Positions 1,470 through 64,000 of a stretch of 64,000 nucleotides of DNA are shown piece after piece (position 1 is the first letter of the stretch; every line of letters begins with the position of its first letter). This stretch comes from an uncultured Gammaproteobacteria bacterium. Its GTDB lineage: Bacteria > Patescibacteriota > Patescibacteriia > Veblenbacterales > UBA10138. A program made the translations under genes and the position numbers. The stretch is taken from NCBI GenBank assembly GCA_964348825.1, contig CAYGDX010000002.1, positions 195,013-259,012 on the forward strand, read 5' to 3'. The notes below the pieces were generated by a model. The model was not told where the DNA came from. It was given only the letters and a program-made list of their open reading frames with translations, and did no database searches.

Positions 1470-1470
1470 T

Positions 1471-1506
1471 TTTAGAATTTAGAAGCTAGAAGTTAGAATT
1501 TAGAAT
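1471..1506. repeat. Heptamer-based tandem repeat tract (TTAGAAT family) in the tsaD-tsaE spacer
   Basis: gttttagaatttagaagctagaagttagaatttagaat. Confidence 0.7.
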
Positions 1507-1941
1507 ATGAAAAAAAAAATTACCACATCTACGTCTGCTCAAACTAAAAATCTTGGTCTTAAAATTGCCCGCACTTTAAAAGGTGGCGAGGTAATTTTAT
1601 TACACGGTGATTTGGGTAGTGGTAAAACTACTTTTGCCAAGGGCTTGGCTAAGGCTTTGGGTATAAAACAAACTATCACCAGTCCGACTTTTGTACTGAT
1701 GAAAGTTTATTCAACTAAACATAAAACTATCAAATGTTTTGTGCACGTTGATTGTTATCGCCTACCGGGTAAAGATTTATTATCGATTGGACTAAATGAT
1801 TATCTGGGAAAAACTGATACAGTAGTCGCCATTGAATGGGCTGAAAAATTACCAAAACTTCCCAATAAAATAGAAAGTATAGAATTATTTTTTAAACACA
1901 ATAAAGAACTAAACGGGAGAATAATTAATTTAAAAAACTAA
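1507..1941 (+). CDS. tsaE: tRNA threonylcarbamoyladenosine biosynthesis protein TsaE (P-loop ATPase)
   Basis: Walker A GDLGSGKTTFAKG. Length 144 aa. Immediately downstream of tsaD. Confidence 0.8.
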   Translation: MKKKITTSTSAQTKNLGLKIARTLKGGEVILLHGDLGSGKTTFAKGLAKALGIKQTITSPTFVLMKVYSTKHKTIKCFVHVDCYRLPGKDLLSIGLNDYLGKTDTVVAIEWAEKLPKLPNKIESIELFFKHNKELNGRIINLKN

Positions 1942-2086
1942 AACACCCTTCGACAAGCTCAGGGTGTTTTTTATAATTAATTGACTGTGCTATTCGTAGC
2001 TCGCACTAATAAACAGTGTATGTTATTTAGTAGCCCATCCTTCGCTAAAGCTACGGAGGGCATTCTTCGCTCTAGCGAGCGAAGAA

Positions 2087-2163
2087 TGGTGGGCGGCGAT
2101 GGATTCGAACCATCGGCCTCTTCATTATCAGTGAAGTGCTCTAACCGGGCTGAGCTAGCCGCC
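2087..2163 (-). tRNA. tRNA-Ile (anticodon GAU), 77 nt including an encoded CCA
   Basis: Reverse complement reads GGGCGGCTAGCTCAGCCCGGTTAGAGCACTTCACTGATAATGAAGAGGCCGATGGTTCGAATCCATCGCCGCCCACCA. The T-loop is GGTTCGAATCC and the anticodon loop is CTGATAA. Confidence 0.85.
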
Positions 2164-2371
2164 CTTAATTTTATACTGTTAATAAACTTATAACCAAATA
2201 ATCATTATGGAACGACAGTGCTGCCTGCCCCGATGACCATCGGGGAGCTAGCCGTCCCAATAACAACTAAACTAGATTATTAAACGCCTGAATATATTAA
2301 CAAAATATGTTTAGTAAGGCAAGAGTATATCAAATACTAGAATGCAAAGCAAAAATTGCCTTAATATACTA

Positions 2372-3469
2372 CTAAAGATCTAAAAGCACGGCCGCAATCC
2401 AAGGAAAGGCCACCGTAACATCACTTTGAATAATCTGATAGTAACTTTCAGTGGAAAGTTTATCCCAAGTAATTTTTTCCTTACCCCCCGCGCCAGAATA
2501 CGAACCGTAAGACATTGGCGAAGAGCCAATTTCAATAAACCCAGCCCAATCTCTAACTTTTGCTAATTTCAAATCATGTTTCAAAGATGGTACCACACAA
2601 ATCGGAAAATCAGCCGAAATGCCACCACCAAGTTGCAAAAAAGCAATTGGCGCAAGTTTGCTTTCTTTCATATACCAATCATACATCAAATGGAAATATT
2701 CCAATCCTGTTTTCATAATATTTCCATCTAACTTAACATCACCCTTTTTCTTATGTGGTCCATCATAAACATAACTAGAAAAAATATTACCCATTGTAGA
2801 ATCCTCAAAGCCTGGCACTATAATTGGGATATTTTTTTCAAAAGCCGCCAGCGTCCAACAATCAGCTGGATTAGCCTTAGAATCAGGCTTAATCAATTTT
2901 TCTTTAAACAGTCGGCGAAAATATTCATGTGGAAAATATCTTTCTTTCTTACTTTCCGCTTGCTGCCACATCTTTAATAAATGTGGTTCCATAATACGCA
3001 CGCTTTCGTCTTCTGGTAAAAATGTATCGGTAATTCGCCTGAGCCCCGCGTCCCTAAGTTCTGCTTCTTGTTTAGGAGTAAGCTCAGTATAACGAGGAAT
3101 GTAGGCATAGTGCGAATGAGCTACATAGCGGTAATACGATTCTTCGTGATTAGCGCCGGTGGCTGAAACTAAATGTACTTTGTTTTTGCGAATGAGTTCC
3201 GCCAGCATTACCCCAACTTGAAAAGAGCTTAGGGCGCCCGCTAAAGTTACAATTAATTTTCCTCCACTTTTTAGATGATTTTTTAACCACAAAGCCGCTT
3301 GCATAGTTGAGCCACCATTGCAATGCATCAGCGTTCTTTCGGCAAACTTACTAATCGGTGCCGGACTTTTTTTTATATTCTCACTCAAAGCACCGGCCGC
3401 TTTATTACCTTCAGATATAATGAATTTTCTTAACCCAGGCGAAAGTTTATTTAGTCTATTTTTTGACAT
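2372..3469 (-). CDS. Deoxyhypusine synthase family protein (DHS-like, NAD-dependent)
   Basis: 365 aa with the layout and motifs of deoxyhypusine/homospermidine synthase-like proteins: GGSTMQAALW and LQLGGGISADFPICVVP. Confidence 0.7.
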   Translation of the reverse strand: MSKNRLNKLSPGLRKFIISEGNKAAGALSENIKKSPAPISKFAERTLMHCNGGSTMQAALWLKNHLKSGGKLIVTLAGALSSFQVGVMLAELIRKNKVHLVSATGANHEESYYRYVAHSHYAYIPRYTELTPKQEAELRDAGLRRITDTFLPEDESVRIMEPHLLKMWQQAESKKERYFPHEYFRRLFKEKLIKPDSKANPADCWTLAAFEKNIPIIVPGFEDSTMGNIFSSYVYDGPHKKKGDVKLDGNIMKTGLEYFHLMYDWYMKESKLAPIAFLQLGGGISADFPICVVPSLKHDLKLAKVRDWAGFIEIGSSPMSYGSYSGAGGKEKITWDKLSTESYYQIIQSDVTVAFPWIAAVLLDL

Positions 3470-3518
3470 ATGATTATAATATAAAAATTTTCTTAATTCT
3501 TTATTGGTTATTCTGAAA

Positions 3519-4763
3519 CTAGTAATCCTTTAATTTCCTCATACCAAAATTATCCTTAATTCTTTCTAAGGCCTTGGCTTCAATTTGCCGAATACGTTCC
3601 CGAGTCACACCAAACTCCTGTCCTACTTCTTCCAGTGTATGTGAAACACCATCTTGCAAACCAAAACGCATTTCTAAAATTTTCTGTTCTCGAGGTGTTA
3701 AATCAGCTACAATTTCACGCACATGATCACGCAAAAGTTGCATAGCGGCCACACGATCAGGTGCCACAGTTTTTATATCTTCAATAAAATCCCCCAAAGT
3801 TGAATCATCGTCACTACTTTCATCGCCGACTGAAGTTTCCAAAGATACAGTTTCCTGAGAAATTTTAATAATGTGATGAATTTTTTCCACTGGCTCACCC
3901 ATTTCAGCCGCGATTTCTTCAGGCAGTGGCTCACGTCCTAAATCTTGAATCAATTGACGCTCAACTTGTTGAAAACGATTAATTGTTTCCACCATATGCA
4001 CCGGAATACGAATGGTACGCGATTGATCAGCTAGTGCTCGAGTAATGGCTTGGCGAATCCACCAAGTGGCGTAGGTTGAAAATTTATAACCTTTACGATA
4101 ATCAAATTTTTCCACAGCGCGAAACATACCAATATTACCTTCTTGAATTAAATCAAGCAGTGATAATGATTTACCGGTAAATTTTTTAGCAATTGAAACC
4201 ACTAAACGTAAATTGGATTCAATTAAACGCCGCTTGGCCTCGGCATCGCCGCGTTCTTTGCGCTTGGCTAAATTAATTTCATCTTCAGTAGATAAGAGTG
4301 GTACTTTACCAATCTCCCGTAAATACATTTGAATAGAATCAGCCGAAATTTCAGAAAGATCGTAAGGTTTTTTATCGGCACTTAAACCAGCGCGCTGGAG
4401 TAACTCCCCTTTTTTCTCAGCCATATCTAAAATTCCACCTTCAGTTTCGAGCACTTGCACACTTTGCTTTTCCAAATCATCTAAAAATTCATCATACAAA
4501 TCAAGATATTCTTCAACTTCAGGAAAAACACCCAGTACTTCTGGCTCAGTTATAAAACCACGCGAGCGTCCCCGTTGAATCATTTTTTTTATTTCTAAAA
4601 CATCCGGCAAAGTAAATTTAACCGTAGCGCGAGGTTTAGGCGCGACATAGCTTTTCTTTATTTTTTTTGCCTTGGCTGATTTTTTAATTGATTTCACAAC
4701 CCGTTTTTTTAACGGTTGATGTTTTTTTATTTTTTTTACAATGCGCCTTAATTTCTTGGGCAT
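3519..4763 (-). CDS. rpoD: RNA polymerase sigma-70 factor with a Lys-rich N-terminal extension
   Basis: Region 2 motif [27 protein letters not shown] and region 4.2 [23 protein letters not shown]. Confidence 0.85.
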
Positions 4764-8561: not shown

Positions 8562-8744
8562 TCGACTCCGATAAAAAGTTGTCGTGGCGGGGTGTACGAT
8601 ATTCGAACTAAGTGGGTCGCCTATCTTTCATAAGTAAGTAGGTCACCCCTTTTACTCAGGAATATGGGTTCACTCCGATAATAAAATGTGCTGGCGGTGT
8701 ACTCGGGTTAGGTACCAAAATACTAGAGGTATTGTAAGGGGTTT
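8562..8744. repeat. Cassette-array repeat, full copy (~183 bp). Contains two sub-repeats, each ending in TGGCGG(G)TGTAC, which resembles the tRNA-Ser 3' end.
   Basis: Identical to 9961-10143 apart from about 2 substitutions. tcgtggcggggtgtacgatATTCGAACtaagtggg mimics the tRNA-Ser 3' end tggcggagaggggagATTCGAACtccc. Confidence 0.85.
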
Positions 8745-8812
8745 TAGGGGTTTAGTCTATGCGACTATTTAAGGTGCTTGAGTCAGCTTGTATTTTATAA
8801 ACCTCGCCGTTT

Positions 8813-9307
8813 TTAATATTTTACTAAACTCTTTTTCATTTCTATTGTATTGGGATGATTTTTAGATTTAGTATGGTTTATTTTCACCTTTTTGTATCCT
8901 CTTCGTTTATAAAATTCAAAAGCCCCGAAACTGGAAGGAACTTTTACTGTTTTATGCCCTTTCTTTTTTGCCAACTCTTCAACTTTATCCATTAATTTTG
9001 AGCCAACACCTTTTCTATGAATTTTAGGGTTCACGAAAACTGTATACACAGTGTCTCCTTTTAAACTAGCTGTACCAATAACTTTTCCTTTTTCAGTGAC
9101 AACATAAATTGTTCTATTTTTCGAATTAGAAATAATCAATGCTGGTGTGAAAAAATTACACAGACTTATAATGACTTTTTTGGAATATTCTTTAATATTC
9201 ACTTCCTTAAGACATTTTCTAATTATATTAGAAACACTTTTAGCATCCTCTTTTTTAAATTTTCTAATACGCATACAAATAAAATTATCGAGATACAATT
9301 TTGACAA
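8813..9307 (-). CDS. GNAT family N-acetyltransferase (cassette 2)
   Basis: Acetyl-CoA motif RKGVGSKLMDKVEELAKKKG. The likely true start is the internal MRIRKF. Confidence 0.7.
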   Translation of the reverse strand: MSKLYLDNFICMRIRKFKKEDAKSVSNIIRKCLKEVNIKEYSKKVIISLCNFFTPALIISNSKNRTIYVVTEKGKVIGTASLKGDTVYTVFVNPKIHRKGVGSKLMDKVEELAKKKGHKTVKVPSSFGAFEFYKRRGYKKVKINHTKSKNHPNTIEMKKSLVKY

Positions 9308-28838: not shown

Positions 28839-28944
28839 AGAAACTACCTCGTGCTATGATATAAACATTAATTTTCCTCACCAATAAAATTTAATAGGAA
28901 TTTAATTAACCGTAGTAAATAATTGCTAATCTATTTTACCTGAT

Positions 28945-29163
28945 ATGAGTCGATATCTCCAAATCGCACAGCTAGTTATTTCAATTTTATTGATTGTAGC
29001 TATCCTCCTTCAAAACCGCGGCGCTGGCTTGGGCGGAATTTTTGGTGGTGAAGGTAATGTGTATCGCACCAAACGTGGTGCTGAAAAAATGATTTTTACT
29101 GCTACTATTGTTTTAGCTATCGCCTTTTTTGGCTTAGCCATTTGGAATTTACTGGCGGCTTAA
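28945..29163 (+). CDS. secG: Preprotein translocase subunit SecG
   Basis: 72 aa, two TM helices, LLQNRGAGLGGIFGG motif. Confidence 0.7.
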   Translation: MSRYLQIAQLVISILLIVAILLQNRGAGLGGIFGGEGNVYRTKRGAEKMIFTATIVLAIAFFGLAIWNLLAA

Positions 29164-49997: not shown

Positions 49998-50369
49998 TCA
50001 CAAACCCAATATAATTTTGGTTTGTTTAATATCTTGCTCAATTTGTTTTTTTATATCTTCCAAATTAGTTGTGCGTATCACGTCGCGTAATTTTTGCACC
50101 ATTTCCACTTGTAAATTCTGTCCATATAGATCATCTGAAAAATCGAGTAAATAAACTTCTTGGCGTGGCTCGCCAGAAGCTTCTTGTTCTACACCAGATA
50201 CCAAAACTCCAGCATATTTTGTGTCGCCTAAAAAAACCCAAACTGCATAAATGCCAGTTTGGGCACGAAAGCTATCCTCAATTAATTTCAAATTAGCCGT
50301 AGGATAACCAATTTGTCTGCCCTCACCCTTACCCCGTATCACTCGGCCAGTTATTATTTCCTTAATCAT
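49998..50369 (-). CDS. Riboflavin kinase domain protein (monofunctional, no FAD synthetase domain)
   Basis: GRVIRGKGEGRQIGYPTANL ... pattern of the RibF C-terminal kinase domain. 123 aa. Confidence 0.65.
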   Translation of the reverse strand: MIKEIITGRVIRGKGEGRQIGYPTANLKLIEDSFRAQTGIYAVWVFLGDTKYAGVLVSGVEQEASGEPRQEVYLLDFSDDLYGQNLQVEMVQKLRDVIRTTNLEDIKKQIEQDIKQTKIILGL

Positions 50370-50994
50370 GGCGGCGCAAACTTAAATCATATTGAATATC
50401 TTCCAACTTTCGCAAATGTTGTTTAGCTTGATCAAATTTACTGCGCAAACTTCCAGTTAAATTCATAGCCGCAAGTTCCCCCACTGTTGCAGTTGCCACT
50501 TCTACTAAAATTTTGATTGTTTTTTTATCACCACCTGTCGCTTGCTTCACCGCATAACGTGCTAATTCTCCTAACAAATCAGAAATCGCTCCTAAATAAA
50601 CATCAGTTGGAATTTTATACCCCGTAACTGGCACGATTTTTTTAGTTTCTAAATAACTCACAAATAATTTAGCTTCCACATATTCTTCTAGCGCTGCTCG
50701 CCAACTGCCCAAGTATTCTATTTCCTCCACTTTTTTTAACACTGCCTTGCCATTTGTAAAAAATCCTTCTGATTTTTTAAGTAAAGTATTGGCTTCCACT
50801 AAATTATCGCGTTGCGCCGCAAAAATTGCCTGTTTAGCTAAAGCTTGAGCTTGATTGGCAAAATCAGATAATTGCCGCCTACCCGCCGCCGCTTTTTGAT
50901 AGGCCTTACCTAAATCATTTAAAAATTTTGTATTATTCATATGGTTAATATCACCAAGATACCACACTAACAACAAATTGCCAAATAAACTCAA
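50362..50994 (-). CDS. Hypothetical all-helical protein (translin-family-like?)
   Basis: 210-aa ORF overlapping the kinase gene by 8 nt; weak resemblance only. Confidence 0.35.
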   Translation of the reverse strand: MSLFGNLLLVWYLGDINHMNNTKFLNDLGKAYQKAAAGRRQLSDFANQAQALAKQAIFAAQRDNLVEANTLLKKSEGFFTNGKAVLKKVEEIEYLGSWRAALEEYVEAKLFVSYLETKKIVPVTGYKIPTDVYLGAISDLLGELARYAVKQATGGDKKTIKILVEVATATVGELAAMNLTGSLRSKFDQAKQHLRKLEDIQYDLSLRRHD

Positions 50995-52885: not shown

Positions 52886-54940
52886 ATGCTACATATCTCC
52901 GACAAACTTACCGCGATTACCGGCCTTGGCCTTCAAACCGCCAAACGACTAAATAAACTTGGCCTTATTACGATTCAAGATTTACTACTTCATTTTCCTG
53001 CCCGCTATGAAGATTTTTCTAAAACCATACCAATTGCACAAGTAAAACTAGGCGAACAAATTACTATTCAAGGTAAAATTCAAACCATTATCGCGCGCAC
53101 CAGCCGTACCCGACGCTTAACTATCACTGAAGCACTTATTTCTGATGCTTCTGGTAGCGTAAAGGCAGTTTGGTTTAATCAACCATACCTTACGCAATCA
53201 TTAGCCAGTGGACAAGAAATAATGCTAGCTGGAAAAATCACAGCTTCTAACTATGGTTGGCAAATTGAACAACCCAACTGGGAATTAGTTACTAAACAAA
53301 CCAATATCCACACCGGCCGTCTAGTGCCTTTTTACCCTTTAACCGCGGGGCTTACGCATTATTTTTTTCGCAAAATTATCGGACGAATTATAAATTTAGT
53401 TGATCAAATACCTGATTTAGTACCGCCTGAAATTAGACAAAATTTAAAAATACCACCACTTAGCATCGCTATAAAAAATTTACATTTCCCAACTAATCAA
53501 ACTGATTTAATTACAGCCCGCCGGCGTGTCGCCTTTGATGAACTATATTTCTTAAGTTTGGCTTCACGACTGGCACACTCACAAACCAATAACCTTAAAG
53601 CACCAACTATACCATTTTCCACCGCCACCCAAAAAATAGTGAGTGAACTACCTTGGCCACTTACACCTGATCAAAAAAAATCGGCTTGGGAAATTATTCA
53701 AGATTTAAATAAAGATAAACCAATGCACCGCTTACTCCAAGGCGAAGTGGGTAGTGGTAAAACTATTGTGGCTGGCCTTGCGGCTTTCAACGTGATTCAA
53801 GCTAACTTGCAAGTAGTAATTCTAGCCCCAACTGAAATACTAGCAGTACAACATTTTCACACTTTAACCAATTTGTTTGCCAATTGGCCAATAAAGTGTG
53901 CCTTGCTAACACGTGGTCATAAAACCACTAATTTTGAAACCAAATCAACCAAACTAAAAATACTTAATCAATTAAAAAATGGGGAAATAAATATTATTAT
54001 TGGCACACATGCACTACTATCCGACAAAATTAATTTTAATAAACTGGGCTTGGTGGTAATTGATGAGCAACACCGTTTTGGGGTGGTACAAAGGCAGTGG
54101 TTAACTAAAGATACTAATATTACACCTCATCTTTTATCACTCTCCGCCACACCAATTCCACGCTCACTGGCCCTAACAATTTTTGGTGATCTTAATATTT
54201 CAATAATAAAACAAATGCCTACTGGACGGCAACCAATTTCTACTTTAATTGTACCACCCCAAAAACGCAGTGGAGCATATAATTTTATTCGACAAGAAAT
54301 TAAGCTTGGTCACCGCGCTTTTATTATTTGTCCACTGGTAGAAGAATCGGATGCTTTAGGTGTACGTGCCGTAACAAGTGAGTATGAAAAATTATCACGT
54401 CAAATTTTTCCTGATATAAAAATTGGTTTACTCCATGGCCGCTTAAAAGCTAAAGCCAAAACCGAAATTATGGCTGAATTTAAAAATGGTACCAAACCAA
54501 TTTTAATCAGTACTTCAGTAGTGGAAGTGGGAGTAGATGTACCCGAGGCCACCATTATGATGATTGAGGGTGCTGAACGATTTGGTATTGCCCAACTCCA
54601 TCAATTTCGTGGCCGAGTAGGTAGATCTAATTTAAAAAGCTATTGCTTATTATTTACTGATACTCAATCAGAACATTCTCTAAAACGTTTACAAGCACTT
54701 ACTAAATATCAAAACGGTTTTGATTTAGCCGAATTTGATTTAAAAAAACGTGGGCCAGGTAATTTGCTAGGCGAAATGCAGTCGGGCTGGGGTAAATTAA
54801 AATTCGCTGAACTGGTAGATTTAAAACTTTTAGATACTGTGCGGAGTGCTACTACTTTAACACTTGGTTTGAATTCCACCCTCACCCGCTGGCCAGAATT
54901 AAAAAATAAAATTGGGGAATTTAATTTTCATCCGGAATAA
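52886..54940 (+). CDS. recG: ATP-dependent DNA helicase RecG
   Basis: N-terminal wedge/OB region, helicase motif I GEVGSGKT, DEQH box in VIDEQHRFG, and C-terminal helicase domain. 684 aa. Confidence 0.85.
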   Translation: MLHISDKLTAITGLGLQTAKRLNKLGLITIQDLLLHFPARYEDFSKTIPIAQVKLGEQITIQGKIQTIIARTSRTRRLTITEALISDASGSVKAVWFNQPYLTQSLASGQEIMLAGKITASNYGWQIEQPNWELVTKQTNIHTGRLVPFYPLTAGLTHYFFRKIIGRIINLVDQIPDLVPPEIRQNLKIPPLSIAIKNLHFPTNQTDLITARRRVAFDELYFLSLASRLAHSQTNNLKAPTIPFSTATQKIVSELPWPLTPDQKKSAWEIIQDLNKDKPMHRLLQGEVGSGKTIVAGLAAFNVIQANLQVVILAPTEILAVQHFHTLTNLFANWPIKCALLTRGHKTTNFETKSTKLKILNQLKNGEINIIIGTHALLSDKINFNKLGLVVIDEQHRFGVVQRQWLTKDTNITPHLLSLSATPIPRSLALTIFGDLNISIIKQMPTGRQPISTLIVPPQKRSGAYNFIRQEIKLGHRAFIICPLVEESDALGVRAVTSEYEKLSRQIFPDIKIGLLHGRLKAKAKTEIMAEFKNGTKPILISTSVVEVGVDVPEATIMMIEGAERFGIAQLHQFRGRVGRSNLKSYCLLFTDTQSEHSLKRLQALTKYQNGFDLAEFDLKKRGPGNLLGEMQSGWGKLKFAELVDLKLLDTVRSATTLTLGLNSTLTRWPELKNKIGEFNFHPE

Positions 54941-55778: not shown

Positions 55779-57128
55779 CTACCTCATCCACTCCACTGCC
55801 TCAGCTAAATTATGCACCTCAACTATCATAATTCCTTTAGGCACCTTAGCGCCTTCTCCCAGTGGCGGTAGCACGGCTTCAGTAAAACCGAGACGCGCCG
55901 CTTCGTTTAAACGTTTATCTATTGCATTCACTGGCCTTACTTCTCCACCCAAACCAACTTCACCAAAAATTACTACTTGGCGTGAGATTGATTTTTTTAA
56001 ATAAGCCGAAGCCACCGCCAAACACACAGCTAAATCAAGTGCTGGTTCACGCGATTTTAATCCGCCAACCAAATTCACATACACATCACTCCAATTTAAT
56101 TTTACACCGGCTCGTTCACCTAAAACCGCGAGGAGTACTTCTAATCTTTTATAATCAAAACCTGTGGCAGAACGTTTGGGATAATTTTGCCGTGAATGGC
56201 TCACTAAAGCTTGTACTTCAAGTAGTAGTCCGCGCGAACCCTGCATTAAGCAAGTCACCACCGCGCCGGCACCCGCATGACGCTCGGCTAAAAATAAACT
56301 CGATGGATTCGCTACTTCTTGCAAACCATTTTCCTCCATCTTAAACACTCCAACTTCGTCGGTTGAACCAAAACGATTTTTCTCAGCCCGTAAAATTCGT
56401 AAAACTCCACTGCGTTCACCTTCTAAACTTAAAACTACATCTACCAAATGCTCCACCGCTTTTGGCCCAGCCGCCTCACCTGCTTTGGTAATATGACCAA
56501 TTACCATTACTGCTACTTGATTTGATTTGGCAAACTCTATTAAAGCCGATAAAACCGCTCGCACCTGCGTTGGCGAACCAGCAGTCGCTTCTGATTCTGA
56601 GTTGTGCATAGTTTGCAAAGAATCTATCACCAATAATATTGGTTTTAAATCACGTGCCGCGGAAGTTATCGCACCAATTTCAGCTTCAGCTGTAAAATGT
56701 AAATTCTTACCCACGAGTCCTAATCGTTTTAAACGATCAGATACTTGAGTCGCCGCTTCTTCGCCTGAGGCATACAAAACTGTTTGTTGTAATTTTTCAG
56801 CGAGCGCCAAAACTAAGGTTGATTTACCCGCCCCCGGTTCGCCAGTTAATAAAATCACACCGCCCGGCGTAATACCACCACCGAGCACTCTATCTAACTC
56901 ATTCAAACCAGTAGAAAGTTTTGGCGTAGCTGTCGCCGATGAATTACCTAAAGAAACCACGGTTGCTGGAGAAGTTGAATAACTGGCGGTTGAATTTTTT
57001 TGATTAGAAATGGTAATTGATTCGGTAGATATTGTACCGAATTTACCACAAGTATTACAACGCCCCGCCCATTTTGGATACTGGGCGTCGCAATTAGAGC
57101 AAGTATACACTGTAATTGATTTAGGCAT
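55779..57128 (-). CDS. radA: DNA repair protein RadA/Sms
   Basis: N-terminal zinc finger CSNCDAQYPKWAGRCNTC, Walker A GEPGAGKST, KNRFG motif, and C-terminal Lon-protease-like domain. Start at the internal MPKSITVY. Confidence 0.9.
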   Translation of the reverse strand: MPKSITVYTCSNCDAQYPKWAGRCNTCGKFGTISTESITISNQKNSTASYSTSPATVVSLGNSSATATPKLSTGLNELDRVLGGGITPGGVILLTGEPGAGKSTLVLALAEKLQQTVLYASGEEAATQVSDRLKRLGLVGKNLHFTAEAEIGAITSAARDLKPILLVIDSLQTMHNSESEATAGSPTQVRAVLSALIEFAKSNQVAVMVIGHITKAGEAAGPKAVEHLVDVVLSLEGERSGVLRILRAEKNRFGSTDEVGVFKMEENGLQEVANPSSLFLAERHAGAGAVVTCLMQGSRGLLLEVQALVSHSRQNYPKRSATGFDYKRLEVLLAVLGERAGVKLNWSDVYVNLVGGLKSREPALDLAVCLAVASAYLKKSISRQVVIFGEVGLGGEVRPVNAIDKRLNEAARLGFTEAVLPPLGEGAKVPKGIMIVEVHNLAEAVEWMR

Positions 57129-57129
57129 T

Positions 57130-58470
57130 TTAAAAACAAGTTGAGGACATCTTTGGTTTTTCAAAGTGCCATGGTTCAGAATTTAATTTACAAAAACCTT
57201 GCGCCCGCATAGCTTGAATAAGTAATTTCATACCCCTCACTTCTTCGCAAGCTGGTTTATTTTTTTTACAATTATCTTGTGATATTACTTGCGTGCCAGC
57301 GAAACCTGCCCACAAATCAACTGCTCGTCCAGTAGTATGTGGACAACTCTTTATTCCTTCTCTTAGTATACAGGTATCATGTTTACCTGTTTTAGGATTA
57401 CAACGTTGACTCCCGGGTGGATTCTGACAATTTTCTTTAATTAATTCTATTTGTTTAACTTCACTACGATAACCAGAGGCAATAATCAATTGAATATCAT
57501 CAGCCGCTAATTTGGCGGCTACTATTCTTAAATCGCTTAATAAACTTTTATCTACAGTATAAGATTTACCATTAACAATATTACGACCTTGTGCTAATAC
57601 TGGTTGCACACCAGAAAAATCAGCTATAGTAACAGTATCTGTTTCGGCTTCATCTTCTAAATTAAACTCCACTCGACGAATATCATCTATACCTTGTAGT
57701 GGTGGGAATTCAACTAATGCTGGATTTATTAAATTAAGCAAGGTATAAGAAATCAAAGCGAGCACCAAACCAATAATGGCGCTAAAAATAGCATCATTTG
57801 AATCACTAATTCTTTCCGCATTACCAGCCGCAATAATTCTTTTAAAACCACCCCAAGTAACCATCACTACAGCAATAACCGCTAACAACCCCACAAAAAA
57901 TTTAAAAAAAACACGTATATAATTGCCTAAAAATTTAGCGTCAACCGCAATCCCCTCGCCACTAGTAATTCTAAATTCTTTACCAGCAATTGTAATACTA
58001 CCTGGAATTGTTACTTGCGGTTTAAATTTTAGCCCGGTATCTGAACTAAGTGACATTTCATCCTCACCAAATGGTACACTATCATTAATTTCTCCACACA
58101 TATCATCTTGATGTAAAGTACAACTAACTTGCGAAGCTGAACAATTAGAATTAGTAATACGAATCCAATCATCAATCCCCCCGTACAAAGAAACTAAACT
58201 ATTATAATTACATTGACTAGTAGAATTAATCATTACACATGTAGAACTACCACCACCCACATTTATACTACTATAACCAGCGGCTTGAAAAGATTGCTCA
58301 CAAATACAAGAACAAGACAGCGCCAAAACTGGCTTGGCTGAAAATAAACCCAACACGAAAAATACCAAAGCTGTAATTATTATCAAACTTTGGAATTTGG
58401 TCCGCCAGTTGGCGGATGGGATTTGTGATTTTTTAGAAATTGACATATTTAAATCCGAAATCCGAAGCAC
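57130..58470 (-). CDS. Secreted Cys-rich protein, paralog 1: N-terminal signal/TM, Cys-rich ectodomain, conserved two-helix membrane hairpin, C-terminal M15 (VanY-like, LAS) peptidase domain
   Basis: Hairpin FFKFFVGLLAVIAVVMVTWGGFKRIIAAGNAERISDSNDAIFSAIIGLVLALISYTLLNLINPAL. M15 motifs SGYRS, CPHTTGRAVD and EPWHFE. The start may be the internal MSISKK (58446). Confidence 0.7.
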   Translation of the reverse strand: MLRISDLNMSISKKSQIPSANWRTKFQSLIIITALVFFVLGLFSAKPVLALSCSCICEQSFQAAGYSSINVGGGSSTCVMINSTSQCNYNSLVSLYGGIDDWIRITNSNCSASQVSCTLHQDDMCGEINDSVPFGEDEMSLSSDTGLKFKPQVTIPGSITIAGKEFRITSGEGIAVDAKFLGNYIRVFFKFFVGLLAVIAVVMVTWGGFKRIIAAGNAERISDSNDAIFSAIIGLVLALISYTLLNLINPALVEFPPLQGIDDIRRVEFNLEDEAETDTVTIADFSGVQPVLAQGRNIVNGKSYTVDKSLLSDLRIVAAKLAADDIQLIIASGYRSEVKQIELIKENCQNPPGSQRCNPKTGKHDTCILREGIKSCPHTTGRAVDLWAGFAGTQVISQDNCKKNKPACEEVRGMKLLIQAMRAQGFCKLNSEPWHFEKPKMSSTCF

Positions 58471-58513
58471 TAAATCCGAAAATTTCGTATTTCGAATTTC
58501 GATATTCGGATTT
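58449..58513. repeat. Heptamer element (AATCCGA/TCGGATT) forming an imperfect palindrome at the 5' end of the paralog-1 gene
   Basis: aaatccgaaatccgaagcactaaatccgaaaatttcgtatttcgaatttcgatattcggattttt. Confidence 0.65.
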
Positions 58514-58524
58514 TTAATAAAATA

Positions 58525-59178
58525 TTACTTACTAATCAACTGCCTCAACTCCTCCACTGTAATCACTCCCGTATGCGTTTTTGCGCCCACAATCAAAAAT
58601 GGTGTACCATCTAGCCCAACTGCCTGACCTTCATTAAAATTTTTCTGAATTAAGGCGCGCGATTTATACTCGGTTAAACAAGATTTAAATTCAACGGTAT
58701 CTAACCCCAGCTCTACGGCTAAATTATTATAAAGTACTTCTCCTAAACTATTCTGCGCGGCAAATAATTTATCATGATACTCCCAGAATTTTCCTTGTGC
58801 TCCGGCACACTGCGCCGCTTCAGCGGCGGGTAGCGATTCGGCGTGATCGGGTAAGGGAAAATCTTTCCACACTAATTTTATTTTACCTTTATTATTCTCC
58901 ACCGCAGTTTTAAGAAGTCCCGATACTTCAGCACAATACGGGCAAGAAAAATCACTAAATTCCACAATTGTAACTTCGGCTGATTTTTCGCCTCGCACTG
59001 GATCAGCGCCAAAAATAATAACATCCTGTGGTAATTTAGTACCACTTTCTGTGATTGGATTGTCAAACACTGGTGGACGAAGTAAGTGGGTATCTGAAAT
59101 TTGTTGCCAAATAGCCAAAACACTCACTAAAATGAGTGCGAATAATAACCAAAATTGTGGGGCGCGGTAGAAAGACAC
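58525..59178 (-). CDS. DsbA-like thiol:disulfide oxidoreductase (thioredoxin fold), membrane-anchored
   Basis: N-terminal TM FWLLFALILVSVLAIW and active site CPYC in FSDFSCPYCAEV. 217 aa. Confidence 0.7.
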   Translation of the reverse strand: MSFYRAPQFWLLFALILVSVLAIWQQISDTHLLRPPVFDNPITESGTKLPQDVIIFGADPVRGEKSAEVTIVEFSDFSCPYCAEVSGLLKTAVENNKGKIKLVWKDFPLPDHAESLPAAEAAQCAGAQGKFWEYHDKLFAAQNSLGEVLYNNLAVELGLDTVEFKSCLTEYKSRALIQKNFNEGQAVGLDGTPFLIVGAKTHTGVITVEELRQLISK

Positions 59179-59190
59179 GATTAAAAAAAT

Positions 59191-59303
59191 AATGACTAAT
59201 CTCTAATTTCTAATTTCTAAAATGACTAATTACTTAATAACCAAATTAGTTATTAGGATTTGGGATTTAAAATTTTTTAGAAATTAGAAATTAGTCATTA
59301 GTG
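59191..59303. repeat. Large inverted repeat (CTAATTT family): aatgactaatctctaatttctaatttctaaaatgactaat ... ttttagaaattagaaattagtcattagtg
   Basis: Arms are reverse complements of each other and flank a 45-bp spacer. Confidence 0.7.
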
Positions 59304-59308
59304 ATTTT

Positions 59309-59353
59309 GAGAAATTGCTTCGTCGCTCGCCTTACTCGCTCCTCGCAATGACA
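59309..59353. repeat. 45-nt conserved motif gagaaattgcttcgtcgctcgccttactcgctcctcgcaatgaca (second copy; see 15605-15649)
   Basis: 41/45 identity with 15605-15649. Confidence 0.7.
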
Positions 59354-59384
59354 AACTATACGCTACCCCCTACACCCTAAAACA

Positions 59385-60668
59385 TCACTTCAACTGCACA
59401 CTTCTTAACCTTCCCGATGATCCTTCTGTAAAATACAAAAATTTAGAATCGGCTGATACTTGTAAATTAAGGGCGGTTATTTCTCTGCCTGACTCATTCA
59501 CTGGTCGTGCTAAAATTGTAGTGCCGCCTGTAGCTAAATCAATCCGCCATAAAGTATCGGGTATTTGTGCCGCCAATTCTCGACTAAATCCTACCCCATC
59601 GGGTAATTCATTTGGCACGGCGCAATAAGCAAAACCAGTGACGAGTGTACATTTATCTACCCACGTCTTTAAATTAATAACTTGCTCATGTGCACCAACC
59701 CGATCGACCGAAGCATCCACTAAATAAAGTTGTGGTTTATAATCGGTTTTATCGGAAAAAGACGAATAAAGTAGACGTGTGCCATCAGGTGACCAACGCG
59801 GCTCGAACCCACGTCCATTTATATACAACCCTTTAAAATTTTCACCATTAAACCCAATGAGTAATACTTGTTGTTGAAATAAACCGCTGGGCTCACCAGT
59901 ACGTGACAGTGCCATCACTTGATTATTAGGTGCCCATTCAACATCTACTTTATCGGCATTCTCACCCATTGGTTCAATACCAGTAAGACCTCCACCATCA
60001 CTACCAATGGTTACTAACCAGCGATCCGCTGGATTATCATCTAAAAATTTTCCGGCAATTTTAGAACTATCAGGCGACCAAGAAAATTCCGTCATTTCTC
60101 GAGGCAGTGTTACTTGTTTTTTATTTACAAAATCATAAATCACGTTCGCCCCATCAGGAAATTCCAAAATAGTTTGATTACCTTGTGGCGACCAAGTAAT
60201 GTTTGATACTCCACAATAAGAATTATTAGTTAGTGTTTTATGACTGCCGCCATTGGTAATTTCATAAAATTTACAATCATTGGGATTGTAATAACGCACG
60301 CCACCGCTACTTAAATTTGGCGCTTGAGCTACACTTGGCGTAAGAGCTGGAGCGGACGTTTCTCCACCAATAGCAATGAGTGATGGTTCTAAATTTAATT
60401 CATCAATTGGCTGGTTAACACCACCTTCGTCGCCCGGTAAATTCTGATCACCATCTGGAGGAAAATTGATTGGCGTATTATTAATATTATCTCGCCCACC
60501 AGTATTATTTGGCAGTCGGCCATCTGATACATCGTTATTTCCAATTGGCAAATTTACGTCGCCAGTAGTTGGCTTCATTGCTAAATAAAAAATCCACGAC
60601 AAAATACCTACGGCCAAAATTACTAATCCAATAATAATCAATTTGCGGCGGCTAAAGTTTTCTAACAT
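59385..60668 (-). CDS. Membrane-anchored TolB-like beta-propeller protein (PD40/WD40-like repeats)
   Basis: N-terminal TM LIIIGLVILAVGILSWIFYLA. Repeated W(S/A)P(D/Q)G motifs: ITWSPQGNQ, FSWSPDSSK, VEWAPNNQ, PRWSPDGTR. Confidence 0.6.
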   Translation of the reverse strand: MLENFSRRKLIIIGLVILAVGILSWIFYLAMKPTTGDVNLPIGNNDVSDGRLPNNTGGRDNINNTPINFPPDGDQNLPGDEGGVNQPIDELNLEPSLIAIGGETSAPALTPSVAQAPNLSSGGVRYYNPNDCKFYEITNGGSHKTLTNNSYCGVSNITWSPQGNQTILEFPDGANVIYDFVNKKQVTLPREMTEFSWSPDSSKIAGKFLDDNPADRWLVTIGSDGGGLTGIEPMGENADKVDVEWAPNNQVMALSRTGEPSGLFQQQVLLIGFNGENFKGLYINGRGFEPRWSPDGTRLLYSSFSDKTDYKPQLYLVDASVDRVGAHEQVINLKTWVDKCTLVTGFAYCAVPNELPDGVGFSRELAAQIPDTLWRIDLATGGTTILARPVNESGREITALNLQVSADSKFLYFTEGSSGRLRSVQLK

Positions 60669-60773
60669 ATATTAATTATAACATATTTTAAGCTTCGCCA
60701 CTAGTGTATATAAAAACAAAAACCAAGTGTAAGGCGCACTCGGTTTTAAATGGATAAATATTAAATTATTAAT

Positions 60774-62456
60774 TTATCTATCTTTAAATCCATTTTCTCT
60801 TGTCAAATACAAGCCACAATTCAATAATTTGGTCATATTACCAGAATCGTCATATGGATTTAAAAGTTGATTTTCTGTTATATCTGCAAATTTTAAATCA
60901 TCTGGTTTGTCGCTATTACTTTGAATTATAGGTTTAACATTTTGACTACCACAAGTTGAGGCGTCAATAGCATACCAATCATCTGCCCCCTTACCTTCTA
61001 CCTCAACCTTTAACATCATACCCTTAAAACCAGTACTACAATAACTGGGTTTAAATTCTTCACCAACACCAACTCCTTGGCCACGATAACAACCACCTAT
61101 TGTATAGCTACCCTTACCTTCTACATCCAAATTTTGTCCTTTACCAGAAATTCCCGGACTAGACAGATAACAATGTGATGTACTATAAGAACCATCATTA
61201 CAAATATAACTCATAGCCACATAATTAACTTCTACCCCGCCAATCTTCCCTTGTGCTAAGAACTTCTTACATTCATACCCCGAACCTTCTTCTTTGGGGA
61301 AACAACCACCATTACCGCTCATACATTCCTGACCAACACACTGGGTGCCATTTAACACTAAATTAACACCACAAGTATCTTCAGTTGGCCTAGCTGTATT
61401 AGGAGAATAAAGTGTTGTTTGTATTGAGGCCCCATCTTTCTCCTCCCACCAACCAGCTTCATAATTTCTCTTATCTTGTTCATAAGTTGGACAAAGTGCG
61501 CCGTAAGATACTGGTTTAACTTTTTCCATTAATAATAAATTATTCTCTACTAACTTTGGATTTAATAAATTAAGTAAGGTATAAGAAATTAAAGCCAGTA
61601 CCAAACCAATTATCGCTCCAAAAATGGCGTCATTAGAATCACTAATTCTTTCCTCATTGCCAGCGGCGATTATTCTTTTAAAACCACCCCACATTACCAT
61701 TACTACTGCTGATACTGCTAACATTCCTATAAAAAATTTAGCAAATTGTTGGATATAACCTGGGAAGCCATTTTTAATAGCCGGCTGACATTTGCCTAAT
61801 TTCTGATCAGTACAAATATTTTCATCACTACTACAATCAACTGAATTACCGTTATTATCTAATTCAACACAAGCCTTGGTTGTTACGCCAGGAATACCAA
61901 TTTGTAGTGGCACCGTTGGTGCTATTGCAAAACATCGGGCTGTTTTATATGTTCCAATATCTTCACAAACTTCCAAACTCCATTCATCTTCTAATCCATT
62001 ATTTTTTAATTTATAAGCCTCACTTCTGCCCCACATACCCGAACCATTTTCACAAGGTTTTTGCAACCAACATCTTTCTTGCATCAAAATTGCCAGATTG
62101 TTTGGTTTTTGATTTTTTTCATATTCTAAATTTCTTTTTGTTTCATCAGCTGGAACTGTATTAAAACCACCTGAGGTACCAGTTACATTACCACATTGAT
62201 ATTCTACCTGAGTGGTAGATTGATTAACTTTTGAACAACAAACTTTTCCATTAACCTCTGGTAAGGCACAATTACAACTAACTTGGCTATTATTATATCC
62301 ACATTTATCAGAAAAACAAGCGCTTTGTGTGGCAGTAAAACCATCACCAATCGCCTGACAAGCACTATCATATTCAGCGGCTAAAACATTTTGTGGTAAA
62401 ACAAAAATTATAATCAAAATTATTTTAACTAAAAAAAGTGCGGCGATTTTACTCAT
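60774..62456 (-). CDS. Secreted Cys-rich protein, paralog 2 (560 aa): signal peptide, Cys-rich domain, conserved two-helix membrane hairpin, second Cys-rich domain
   Basis: Hairpin FAKFFIGMLAVSAVVMVMWGGFKRIIAAGNEERISDSNDAIFGAIIGLVLALISYTLLNLLNPKL preceded by the conserved GIPGVT...GFPGYIQ block. Confidence 0.65.
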   Translation of the reverse strand: MSKIAALFLVKIILIIIFVLPQNVLAAEYDSACQAIGDGFTATQSACFSDKCGYNNSQVSCNCALPEVNGKVCCSKVNQSTTQVEYQCGNVTGTSGGFNTVPADETKRNLEYEKNQKPNNLAILMQERCWLQKPCENGSGMWGRSEAYKLKNNGLEDEWSLEVCEDIGTYKTARCFAIAPTVPLQIGIPGVTTKACVELDNNGNSVDCSSDENICTDQKLGKCQPAIKNGFPGYIQQFAKFFIGMLAVSAVVMVMWGGFKRIIAAGNEERISDSNDAIFGAIIGLVLALISYTLLNLLNPKLVENNLLLMEKVKPVSYGALCPTYEQDKRNYEAGWWEEKDGASIQTTLYSPNTARPTEDTCGVNLVLNGTQCVGQECMSGNGGCFPKEEGSGYECKKFLAQGKIGGVEVNYVAMSYICNDGSYSTSHCYLSSPGISGKGQNLDVEGKGSYTIGGCYRGQGVGVGEEFKPSYCSTGFKGMMLKVEVEGKGADDWYAIDASTCGSQNVKPIIQSNSDKPDDLKFADITENQLLNPYDDSGNMTKLLNCGLYLTRENGFKDR

Positions 62457-62465
62457 AATAAAAAA

Positions 62466-64000
62466 TTATAAATCCAAATCTGGTTCACACGACCAACGTT
62501 GATTTAAATTCCATTCGGCCCGACAGCCCATTTTACATAAATCGTAATAACAAAAGGGGAATTCTAATCCTGCCAACTCGCCATCTACATCCTCAAAATC
62601 ACCACAATCATTTGGAGCGGTAAAAGTTTTGTCACCAAAAGTACCACCCTGACAAACAGTATTTTTAAGTGTATTTGACATATAAACACACCTATCATCA
62701 TCTGACAATAGTCCGCCACTTGTACTAGCAACTGCTAATGCGGCGCTACCTGCAACCGTACCTCCATACCCAAGAGGAAAACTAACTACCAAAGCTGGTA
62801 TTATACCTATACCACCAGAAGCGACAGTTATTATAGCGGTGCTTAAACCCACACCTAAAATTGTTACTGCCGTACCAAAATTACTGGTTTCCATCCATAA
62901 ACACTGACCATTTTTGTCACTATAATTAGCGCAAGCTGAAGTAAAAATGTCATGACTATCACTAGCACTACCATGTATACCCTTAACATTGTCATCAGTT
63001 ATATTAGCGCAAGCTGCCCATGAGTTGGTACATTTATATTCAACATTGCCCGCACTATAATTAACTGGGTAACATCCAGCACCTTCGGGAAATCCTAAGG
63101 TCGGTGAGCAACTTGCCCCCTTACAACTTTTACCATCAAAATTATTCCATTCGCCGCAAGAAATATGTTTACTTGGATCATTTGGTAATGGGTCAGGACA
63201 CCAATCACCCAAACTTTGCGTTCTTACTCTATCTATTTGCACACCTGAATTTTCAATTAATTTTGGATTTATTAAATTAAGTAAAGTATAAGAAATTAAA
63301 GCGAGTACTAAACCAATTATAGCTCCAAAAATTGCTTCATTTGAATCACTAATTCTTTCCGCATTACCCGCCGCAATAATTCTTTTAAAACCACCCCACA
63401 TTACCATTACTACTGCTGATACTGCTAACATTCCTATAAAAAACTTAGCGAATTTTTGTATGTAACCTGGAAAACCGTCATTAATGGCTGATTTGCAAGT
63501 ACCTAATTGTTTATTAACACAGTCCTCATCTGTGTTACAAGACTCTGCCTTACCACTATAATTATATTGCGAACAAACTTTTTCAGTTACTCCGGGGATG
63601 CCAATTTGCAAAGCAATTGGTTGTGTGGCAATCAGGCATCTCCTAGTTTCTACCCCACCTTCTCCACCCAATGGCTTACAATCTGGAGAATCTTCTTTAC
63701 TAGCCCATTTACCCCTTTGATCATTTTCACAAGCTGTTTGTGTCCAACATTTATCAAATTGTAAAAGAGATGGATCAATAGCTTCGGGATCAGAATTTCC
63801 ACAACTATTATCAGCAAAATATTGACATTTTTTTTCCCATGCATCTTCCCTAATTTTACCCCTTGCATTCTGGTTATCACACTCACTCTTTGTTATATTC
63901 TCCTGACAAGCAGGTGCAGTAAATAAACGATCATCAAAACACCTACACGATCCTGCCCAAGTAGTATTCACAATTAAAAAATTTAATAAAACAAAAACTA
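62466..64000 (-). CDS. Secreted Cys-rich protein, paralog 3; partial, with the 5' end beyond the window
   Basis: Same hairpin FAKFFIGMLAVSAVVMVMWGGFKRIIAAGNAERISDSNEAIFGAIIGLVLALISYTLLNLINPKL. The reading frame stays open to the window edge and encodes a signal-peptide-like VFVLLNFLIVNTTWAG upstream of the GTG at 63971. Confidence 0.6.
   Translation of the reverse strand, partial: VFVLLNFLIVNTTWAGSCRCFDDRLFTAPACQENITKSECDNQNARGKIREDAWEKKCQYFADNSCGNSDPEAIDPSLLQFDKCWTQTACENDQRGKWASKEDSPDCKPLGGEGGVETRRCLIATQPIALQIGIPGVTEKVCSQYNYSGKAESCNTDEDCVNKQLGTCKSAINDGFPGYIQKFAKFFIGMLAVSAVVMVMWGGFKRIIAAGNAERISDSNEAIFGAIIGLVLALISYTLLNLINPKLIENSGVQIDRVRTQSLGDWCPDPLPNDPSKHISCGEWNNFDGKSCKGASCSPTLGFPEGAGCYPVNYSAGNVEYKCTNSWAACANITDDNVKGIHGSASDSHDIFTSACANYSDKNGQCLWMETSNFGTAVTILGVGLSTAIITVASGGIGIIPALVVSFPLGYGGTVAGSAALAVASTSGGLLSDDDRCVYMSNTLKNTVCQGGTFGDKTFTAPNDCGDFEDVDGELAGLEFPFCYYDLCKMGCRAEWNLNQRWSCEPDLDL

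Follow-up and report, generated by a model that had tools for sequence, protein, structure and literature searches.

Gene content of the locus

The 64,000-nt stretch of contig CAYGDX010000002.1 analyzed here (the window) ends in a row of five minus-strand genes encoding three paralogous proteins with a pilin-like two-helix hairpin (named P1, P2, and P3), a DsbA-like protein, and a PD40 beta-propeller protein. An earlier sequence-only reading of this DNA had listed five open reading frames (ORFs) here, and all five are present on the minus strand. L001 and L015 are stretches of the source contig beyond the window end; the other L numbers denote related loci, except L016, which belongs to another lineage.

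P1 (57130..58446) comprises 438 amino acids (aa) from the ATG at 58446 used in the public gene call, and its ORF reaches to a GTG at 58470 (446 aa). Residue numbers refer to the 438-aa form, except for the span of the PF18895 match. The protein consists of a signal peptide, a variable Cys-containing N-terminal ectodomain, the pilin-like hairpin, a linker, and an M15/VanY-type zinc peptidase domain. The leader (aa 1 to 44; 58315..58446), with a hydrophobic segment at aa 16 to 49, ends in KPVLA followed by LSCSC, a cleavage-type site read from the sequence. The hairpin occupies aa 170 to 245 (57712..57939), with the loop WGGFKRIIAAGN at 57820-57855. The M15 (LAS) domain occupies aa 280 to 438 (57133..57609) and contains SGYRS (57463-57477), CPHTTGRAVD (57316-57345), and EPWH (57166-57177).

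Upstream of P1 lies the DsbA-like gene (58525..59178), with a CPYC motif at 58933-58944 (aa 79 to 82) and a GTP cis-Pro loop at 58600-58608 (aa 191 to 193), and then the PD40 gene (59385..60668), whose product has a transmembrane (TM) segment at aa 5 to 34, a Gly/Asn/Pro-rich spacer of ~80 aa, and the propeller. P2 (60774..62456; 560 aa) has a signal peptide (aa 1 to 26), a Cys-rich N-ectodomain (aa 27 to 229), the hairpin (aa 230 to 304; 61545-61769), and a Cys-rich, beta-rich C-ectodomain (aa 305 to 560). P3 (62466..64000) runs past the window edge; its full length on the source contig is 528 aa, from an ATG at 64052, 52 nt beyond the window. The P3 hairpin lies at 63252-63476, and an extra hydrophobic stretch (aa 392 to 433) lies at 62754-62879. 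Between P2 and the PD40 gene, a pattern scan, the only evidence for this feature, found a terminator-like stem-loop of 11 pairs followed by a T run (60719..60747). All of these features are on the minus strand.

Relatedness and topology of P1, P2, and P3

P2 and P3 are 50% identical over 245 aa (E = 4e-69), and P1 matches each of them at 60 to 74% identity over 91 to 120 aa (E = 1e-35 to 4e-36), and its similarity to them is confined to the hairpin and a short adjoining stretch. In an ungapped 76-aa hairpin core, identity among the three paralogs is 79 to 91%, far above chance. Each paralog starts with a hydrophobic leader with an AXA-like end (VLA, VLA, and TWA, respectively), and two hydrophobic helices follow. 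The ORFs, alignments, and topology scan bear out the earlier description of three paralogs with a signal peptide, Cys-rich ectodomains, and a conserved two-helix hairpin. The same description called the ectodomains completely different, which does not hold for P2 and P3. These two have about 110 aa in common ahead of the hairpin. Eleven cysteines of the C-terminal domain are invariant in their family (19 sequences), which also shares a CW...C motif and an ARCF...LQIGIPG box. P2 orthologues with 35 to 44% identity over 78% of the length occur in Veblenbacteria-type and other genomes.

The flanks of the hairpin measure 126 to 204 aa on the N-terminal side and 193 to 261 aa on the C-terminal side. 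All 74 cysteines of P1 to P3 are in the ectodomains and none is in the hairpin, with an even number on each side (8 + 8 in P1, 16 + 12 in P2, and 14 + 16 in P3). From this distribution, both flanking domains are likely to lie outside the cytoplasm and to contain disulfide bonds, and the short loop would be cytoplasmic. The loop WGGFKRIIAAGNAERISDSND is charged and had been described as basic; it contains three basic and three acidic residues and is net neutral. In the AlphaFold2 (AF2) model of P1, the hairpin helices span residues 170 to 205 and 210 to 240 with a predicted local distance difference test (pLDDT) score of ~95, and the N-ectodomain has low confidence. The modeled P2 ectodomains (AF2) had no significant fold match in the PDB.

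Between paralogs, the hairpin has a nonsynonymous-to-synonymous substitution ratio (dN/dS) of 0.1 to 0.2 and a synonymous divergence (dS) of 0.5 to 1.1, and the flanks are saturated. By these substitution rates, the hairpin is under strong purifying selection. The dS values and the saturated flanks further indicate that the paralogs are old and that recent gene conversion, which was considered and rejected on the hairpin dS, is not the source of the hairpin conservation. This bears on the earlier suggestion that the locus is a surface-variation cassette in which ectodomains are exchanged by gene conversion on a constant anchor. A constant hairpin with divergent ectodomains, as well as a paralog copy number of 1 to 3 among related loci, is what such a cassette would be expected to have, and the literature has speculated that pilin arrays aid adaptation to different hosts (PMC12102498). 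However, the paralogs lack the signature of recent conversion, P1 and P2 orthologues elsewhere retain invariant cysteine frameworks, and neither silent cassettes nor direct repeats were observed, which leaves surface variation very improbable.

Two further features of the family were noted. The hydrophobic stretch at aa 392 to 433 of P3 is Gly/Ala rich, has room for one or two more membrane helices, and is shared by few relatives; if it were membrane inserted, the topology of the P3 C terminus would change. In addition, an LQ[IV]xIPG box is found 20 to 45 aa ahead of the first hairpin helix (58000-58011 in P1, 61881-61898 in P2, and 63585-63602 in P3). This box, which the Pfam model does not cover, varies little or not at all within the family and might be a processing site.

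Identity of the hairpin

P1 matched the Pfam T4SS_pilin family PF18895 with 28.9 bits, above the gathering cut-off of 26.6 bits, at aa 185 to 248 (446-aa numbering). P2 and P3 scored 25.9 and 25.4 bits, respectively (E about 1e-5), and P2/P3 orthologues clear the cut-off, with 30.0 bits for a P3-like protein of L002 and 31.7 bits for a protein of L006. The hairpins also match NCBIfam NF045849 (pilin-like conjugal transfer), under the cut-off of that model. Using the P2 hairpin as the query, 9,535 representatives were retrieved at E <= 1e-3, and 120 of these proteins were scanned in a census. PF18895 was matched by 117 of the 120, and 19 also matched PF04956 (TrbC/VirB2), with a best E value of 1e-14. 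P1 to P3 themselves had no PF04956 match at E <= 1. On these profile matches the hairpin is assigned to the PF18895 family; it appears VirB2-like by architecture, gene context, and a transitive sequence link and is not a demonstrated VirB2 homologue.

The VirB2/TrbC/TraA pilins and PrgF of pCF10 resemble P1 to P3 in having a leader, two long hydrophobic helices, a short charged loop, and a gene in a type IV secretion system (T4SS) cluster. P1 to P3 differ from them in the large flanking domains on both sides of the hairpin, and the link between the two groups runs only via members that match both Pfam models. P1 to P3 therefore have the VirB2/TrbC layout of leader, two TM helices, and short charged loop but, at 438 to 560 aa, are not small mature proteins, and the mature VirB2 homologues characterized so far are all small two-helix proteins. 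In solved conjugative pili the loop faces the lumen and both termini point outward (bioRxiv 10.64898/2025.12.18.695078), so that domains on both termini would be geometrically compatible with display. An alternative, TcpC-like identity proposed earlier found no support.

No small stand-alone pilin gene was found in ~82 kb around the cluster. One candidate, at 28930-29163, gave a marginal match to the hairpin hidden Markov model and was rejected, as it is a small, seemingly unannotated SecG-like ORF (28945-29163, plus strand) with the motif LLQNRGAGLGGIFGG. Among the P2-hairpin relatives, some are hairpin concatemers; P0131 (820 aa) contains eight PF18895 stretches and matches TrbC/VirB2 at 1.5e-13, and several others have three to six hairpins.

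The M15 peptidase domain of P1

P1 scored 25.3 bits against PF02557 (VanY), a marginal match relative to the cut-off of 25, and 23.4 bits against PF01427 (cut-off, 27). A search of the PDB with the single P1 sequence gave only a marginal match to Ply500. A conservation profile of 62 proteins in which the hairpin is fused to an M15 domain matched VanY, LdcB, and VanX in the PDB at E values of 4e-4 to 7e-4, and Ply500 as well. Alignment to SEHQLGLAVD and EPWH of VanY identifies H370, D377, and H427 of P1 as the zinc ligands and E424 as the catalytic residue. These four residues, the substrate-binding R327, and Q332 are each at least 90% conserved in the 62 fusions, as is the SGYRS..Q motif. The modeled domain has a pLDDT of >95 and reached a Foldseek probability of 1.0 to structures of the same enzymes; the matches at this value included 5hnm, 1r44, 2vo9, 4jid, 6akv, and the Hedgehog N-domain. 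Motifs (SGYRS, CPHTTGRAVD, and EPWH), profile, and fold agree with the earlier M15/VanY call, and the C-terminal 160 aa of P1 are on this basis assigned as a genuine M15/LAS domain of the VanY type, with predicted activity.

VanY, LdcB, VanX, and Ply500 have in common with P1 the fold and the motifs SxxR..Q, H-x6-D, and E-x-x-H; P1 differs in its fusion to a pilin hairpin and in a subfamily-specific Cys-rich insert with six conserved cysteines (NCQNPPGS.TCNPK...TC...SCPH). Its identity to the endolysins Ply500 and LysB4 (25%) is higher than that to the carboxypeptidases (16 to 21%), and identity does not settle bond specificity. PHROGs yielded no match for P1 to P3, the PD40 protein, or the upstream proteins. 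In NCBI, relatives with the hairpin-M15 fusion are named either "pilin" or "D-alanyl-D-alanine carboxypeptidase family protein."

The DsbA-like and PD40 proteins

The DsbA-like protein matches Thioredoxin_4 with 109 bits (2.7e-31) and DSBA with 66 bits (5.8e-18) and has an N-terminal TM segment. Its fold families, CPYC motif, and cis-Pro loop agree with the earlier DsbA call, and it is assigned from these features as a membrane-anchored, DsbA-type CPYC oxidoreductase. In all related loci examined, the DsbA-like gene lies directly upstream of the gene encoding the hairpin-hydrolase fusion, and its earlier description as dedicated is consistent with this arrangement. Neither DsbB nor VKOR was found in the window. 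F-plasmid TrbB and TraF likewise have a thioredoxin fold and genes inside a T4SS cluster; TrbB shows disulfide isomerase activity and is believed to stabilize T4SS assembly (PMC11315126). The protein of the present locus is set apart from TrbB and TraF by its N-terminal membrane anchor, its DsbA-type CPYC oxidase character, its monoderm setting, and its tight coupling to one gene for a Cys-rich substrate.

The PD40 protein has two PD40 repeats (36.6 bits versus a cut-off of 20.9; 4.2e-9) and weak TolB matches in the PDB. The propeller had been called TolB-like, of which the generic PD40 repeats stand; TIGR02800 (TolB) scored 23 bits versus a cut-off of 343, and no tol or pal genes are present. 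The PD40 gene lies upstream of the DsbA-like gene in all eight loci long enough to judge (the window, L002, L003, L005, L006, L011, L012, and L013). By its architecture, the propeller may be a wall-spanning partner.

Two sequence features were seen beside these genes. The gap between the PD40 and DsbA-like genes (59179-59384) contains an AT-rich 32-nt inverted repeat (59191-59222 and 59275-59306) that is 91% complementary and includes TAATTTC-like heptamers, and an imperfect palindrome occupies the junction of the DsbA-like gene and P1 (58451-58513).

T4SS genes adjoining the locus

On the source contig, the genes leading toward the window encode, in order, a 1091-aa polytopic protein, an 819-aa soluble protein, a 23S-rRNA-IVP protein, PrgI (VirB3-like), a TrsD/TraC-like protein, the VirB4 ATPase, a 189-aa TM-anchored protein, a 144-aa TM protein, P3, and P2. 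The PD40 propeller, DsbA-like, P1, and RadA genes follow, and RecG then lies on the opposite strand. The cluster genes upstream of P3 are co-oriented with P3. RadA (Pfam assignment; minus strand) extends from 55779 to about 57128-57164 and starts at the P1 stop codon or overlaps it; RecG (52886-54940), on the strand opposite to RadA, lies just beyond. RadA is treated here as a context gene.

VirB4 lies ~1.6 kb upstream of P3, and VirB4, PrgI, and the TraC-like gene together lie 1.6 to 5 kb upstream. A check for a T4SS ATPase gene past the window edge had been proposed earlier, and this VirB4 homologue is what was found there. The VirB4 protein (L001:6520-8388) matches the solved VirB4 4ag5 at 7e-49 and TrwK at 2e-4. 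Precomputed matches assign PrgI to PF12666 and the TraC-like protein to PF26593; our own scan of the 225-aa protein gave a weak match (TraC_F_IV, E = 0.0026). The 1091-aa protein (L015:6719-9994) starts with a membrane part of 340 aa, in which about six to seven TM segments are found, and continues in a large hydrophilic tail with a HERSH (HExxH-like) motif. Neither it nor the 819-aa protein has a family match, and architecture and position make the former a candidate for an extended VirB6. For the 189-aa protein encoded after VirB4, neither the PDB nor Pfam gave a match, so that its label as a possible VirB8 analogue comes from position and architecture only.

Arrays of VirB2-like pilins are known from Patescibacteria T4SSs through a 2023 description by Wang et al. 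(PMC10633639) and a 2025 survey by Quinonero-Coronel et al. (PMC12102498). These systems contain VirB4, TrsD, and PrgI, usually have no relaxase, and mostly lack VirB1, and the absence of a relaxase and coupling protein is typical of these clusters (PMC12102498). In class ABY1 the T4SS is linked to radA, recG, and comF, and its usual location in most classes is the rnpA-dnaA region; pilin genes were found near virB4 in 1,135 assemblies (PMC12102498). The locus resembles these arrays in having the same VirB4, TrsD/TraC-like, and PrgI genes beside an array of PF18895 genes, some of them with non-pilin genes in between, and in the same lack of a nearby relaxase and coupling protein and the same ABY1-type linkage to radA and recG. 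The VirB4, TrsD/TraC-like, and PrgI genes, the PF18895 hairpins, and the radA/recG linkage together identify the locus as a pilin array of a Patescibacteria T4SS. On gene content and order, the region is assigned to the distal, envelope-facing part of a chromosomal Patescibacteria T4SS that is related to monoderm (MPF-FATA) conjugation machines. Relatives of the window proteins are labeled Uhrbacteria, Magasanikiibacteriota, Kerfeldbacteria, and Veblenbacteria, and the genome probably belongs to class ABY1. The proximity of radA, recG, and comF could hint at a link to DNA uptake.

Because the Patescibacteria T4SS, its pilin arrays, and the ABY1 linkage to radA/recG are published (PMC10633639 and PMC12102498), the earlier statement that this is not a described system cannot be kept for the locus as a whole. 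The region differs from the published arrays in several respects. Mean identity in those arrays is 25% and the maximum is 54% (PMC12102498), and a review describes the Southlakia pilins as "structurally conserved, but sequence-divergent"; the hairpins here are 79 to 91% identical and are set in proteins of 438 to 560 aa with two Cys-rich ectodomains, one of which is catalytic, and a PD40-DsbA pair is included. In the literature searched, which included PMC10633639 and PMC12102498 with their supplements, no description of hairpin proteins with two ectodomains, of hairpin-hydrolase fusions, or of a module of PD40, DsbA, and hairpin-hydrolase genes was found, and the text supplements of PMC12102498 have no VanY, DsbA, or PD40 entries. 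Measured against this literature, pilin-like proteins that have several disulfide-rich and in part catalytic domains, near-identical hairpins, and a DsbA and a propeller of their own appear to go beyond the published system.

Other observations in the cluster concern 23S-rRNA-IVP (four-helix-bundle) genes and a large upstream protein. An intact 23S-rRNA-IVP gene lies within the T4SS cluster (L001:4642-5004), with remnants after VirB4 (L001:8475-8576 and 8714-8830), and L011 carries a 71-aa remnant between its PD40 and DsbA-like genes (9082-9297). Upstream of the cluster lies the gene for a 2486-aa protein, of which L015:1-4662 covers the C-terminal 1553 aa. It has 71 cysteines, matches no Pfam family, and is probably another very large disulfide-rich surface protein.

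Conservation of the module and diversity of the fused hydrolases

A search with a six-sequence alignment returned five related loci. The module of PD40, DsbA-like, and hairpin-hydrolase genes is present in each of the eight loci long enough to judge. L011 repeats the entire gene order of the present locus, and L002 (CAYVOI010000001.1) is fully syntenic with Patescibacteria T4SS loci, and its "Gammaproteobacteria" label is probably a taxonomic mislabel. RadA is syntenic with the P1-type gene in L002 to L006, L011, and L012, and the order of the pilin-hydrolase fusion, RadA, and RecG is conserved in relatives. VirB4 lies within 10 kb in five of the seven loci with long flanks. As in the window, a VirB4-type T4SS cluster adjoins the hairpin genes in L002, L005, L006, and L011. 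L012 and L003 carry the PD40, DsbA-like, hairpin-M15, and RadA genes without VirB4 in the sequence available, which indicates that the module is detachable from the T4SS cluster. The putative terminator at 60719-60747 fits a separable module of PD40, DsbA-like, P1, and RadA genes, as in L012.

More than 80 proteins carry the hairpin together with a VanY fusion. The hairpin is also fused to M23, 3D, C39-like, glucosaminidase, and NlpC/P60 domains; the census additionally contained Amidase_5, and SLT occurred in 6 of its 120 proteins. Among the related loci, the hydrolase of L013 is swapped to NlpC/P60, and L006 has an added M23 fusion. On these domain assignments, hairpin-hydrolase fusions are a widespread class in which the hydrolase domain is interchangeable. 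A phmmer search with Agrobacterium VirB1 retrieved no fusion of the hairpin to SLT, and one was found by motif. In L016, a 497-aa protein with three pilin hairpins and SLT is followed by a beta-propeller gene (1281-3947), beside yidC, rnpA, rpmH, and dnaA, which suggests that the pairing of hydrolase and propeller may be wider than the ABY1-type module.

VirB1, PrgK, and TraG are, like P1, membrane-anchored wall hydrolases encoded in T4SS clusters, and P1 relatives carry SLT, NlpC/P60, and M23 domains, as monoderm VirB1 proteins do. PrgK of pCF10 is the active wall-degrading enzyme of its system and is essential for conjugation. P1 differs from VirB1, PrgK, and TraG in its M15/VanY catalytic domain, which is outside the VirB1 profiles used in the published survey (PMC12102498), and in its anchor, which is a pilin hairpin placed after an ectodomain and not a single N-terminal helix.

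Proposed role of the hairpin proteins

We propose that the hairpin docks the ectodomains onto the T4SS and that the hydrolase fused to it takes over the "missing" VirB1 function, and we give this model a probability of about 0.6. P1 to P3 would be exported by Sec and adopt an N-out/C-out orientation in the membrane, with a cytoplasmic loop and two external ectodomains. The co-encoded, membrane-anchored DsbA would oxidize their cysteines, for which F-plasmid TrbB offers a precedent. The near-identical hairpins may serve as a common handle by which the VirB4/VirB3/VirB6-like core recruits P1 to P3, or extracts and stacks them, at the channel, and the ectodomains would thereby come to lie on the outside of a short wall-crossing stalk or pilus. 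The M15 domain of P1 (M23, NlpC/P60, SLT, glucosaminidase, or 3D in other lineages) would open peptidoglycan locally, either the producer's or the host's, in the role of VirB1/PrgK, and P2 and P3 may act as binding or adhesion modules.

A number of observations weigh against this model. P2 and P3 stay slightly under the PF18895 cut-off. A hairpin profile compared by hhalign with four Agrobacterium-type VirB2/TrbC sequences reached a nonsignificant probability of 2.8%, and against the PDB it retrieved no solved pilin; structural matches to the hairpin were nonspecific helical hairpins, with an archaeal conjugative pilin first at rank 46. The VirB2/TrbC idea of the sequence-only reading stands on the PF18895 matches, the pilin-like architecture, and the VirB4 context. 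Searches of the 64-kb window and of 22 kb upstream gave no VirD4 or relaxase gene, nor, in these 86 kb, a sequence-supported VirB6. L012 and L003 have the module without a nearby VirB4. By score, the closest M15 relatives are the carboxypeptidases VanY and LdcB, and the case for polymerization of the hairpin or its docking to the T4SS comes from family membership and gene linkage. Finally, a homopolymeric pilus would have little room for ectodomains of 130 to 260 aa on both termini of each subunit. Roles as minor subunits, at the base or tip, or nonpolymerizing docking are more plausible than a fully occupied filament.

Carboxypeptidases of the VanY/LdcB type trim stem peptides and do not breach the wall. 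P1 could accordingly be an ordinary anchored LdcB/VanY-like carboxypeptidase with a housekeeping role in stem peptide trimming as the cell grows, with P2 and P3 as unrelated surface proteins, the hairpin as a mere anchor, and a proximity to the T4SS that arose by chance from synteny in small genomes. The best M15 matches, the VirB4-free blocks of L012 and L003, and the housekeeping character of the remaining window genes are in keeping with this explanation. However, the anchor is a conserved PF18895 family with more than 9,500 representatives that overlaps TrbC/VirB2, and pilin genes recur near virB4 in many assemblies (PMC12102498). The hairpins are nearly identical under purifying selection and the ectodomains divergent, the same hairpin carries many lytic domains, among them SLT, the classical one of VirB1, and VirB4 is adjacent in most loci with long flanks. 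A housekeeping role is therefore considered quite unlikely.

As a sub-variant of the docking model, the hydrolase carried on the hairpin, perhaps together with P2 and P3, might be delivered by or on the T4SS and cut the host wall at the site of contact for nutrient or DNA uptake. It would then act as an effector or at the tip and not in remodeling of the producer's wall. The epibiotic lifestyle would suit this use, as would the outward orientation of pilin termini, the RadA/RecG linkage in the case of DNA uptake, and the highest identity of P1 being to phage endolysins. It would also suit the findings that the T4SS is essential for epibiotic growth in the one Patescibacterium tested and that the pilins are essential in a cultivated Saccharibacterium; the function of the T4SS has been called "completely unknown." The swapping of hydrolase types among lineages (M15, M23, NlpC/P60, and SLT) is expected if the enzyme tracks host wall chemistry, and it would fit own-wall and host-wall targets alike. 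On the other side, the conserved PD40 and DsbA partners equally suit assembly in the producer envelope, no PHROGs phage lysin was matched, and no immunity gene is evident. Offensive use is therefore put forward tentatively, as an unlikely specialization of the docking model.

A more far-reaching form of the model is a "drill," in which VirB4 would pull P1 to P3 out of the membrane and build them into, or attach them to, a short stalk or pilus. Bearing the hydrolase and disulfide-locked binding domains, this structure would cross the producer wall and attack that of the host. We consider this form doubtful. If it were true, these would be the first conjugative-type pilins with catalytic domains, and it would explain why Patescibacteria T4SS clusters are mostly without a stand-alone VirB1.

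If the hairpin-fused hydrolases are the wall-opening component, as the docking model holds, the reported VirB1 gap would be filled, and they would give a pointer to the site of action, in the cell's own wall or in that of the host. The locus also offers handles on an essential T4SS, namely, enzyme-bearing pilin-type hairpins, a dedicated oxidase, and a conserved propeller partner. It widens the range of VirB2-like protein forms, which matters for automated annotation.

Other genes of the window

The rest of the window contains housekeeping genes in the style of a small candidate phyla radiation genome with a G+C content of ~37%. These include TsaD, sigma-70, DnaG, PPDK, GroEL, UvrABC, UvrD, and RNase J, as well as TrpRS, SHMT, FolD, RecG, and RadA. 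An Rfam scan of the window detected no family besides tRNAs. Two genes are of types unusual for bacteria. One is a deoxyhypusine-synthase-like gene (2372-3469, minus strand; PF01916 at 1.8e-29), and the other is a translin-family gene (50362-50994, minus strand; PF01997 at 2.1e-20), which is syntenic in L011.

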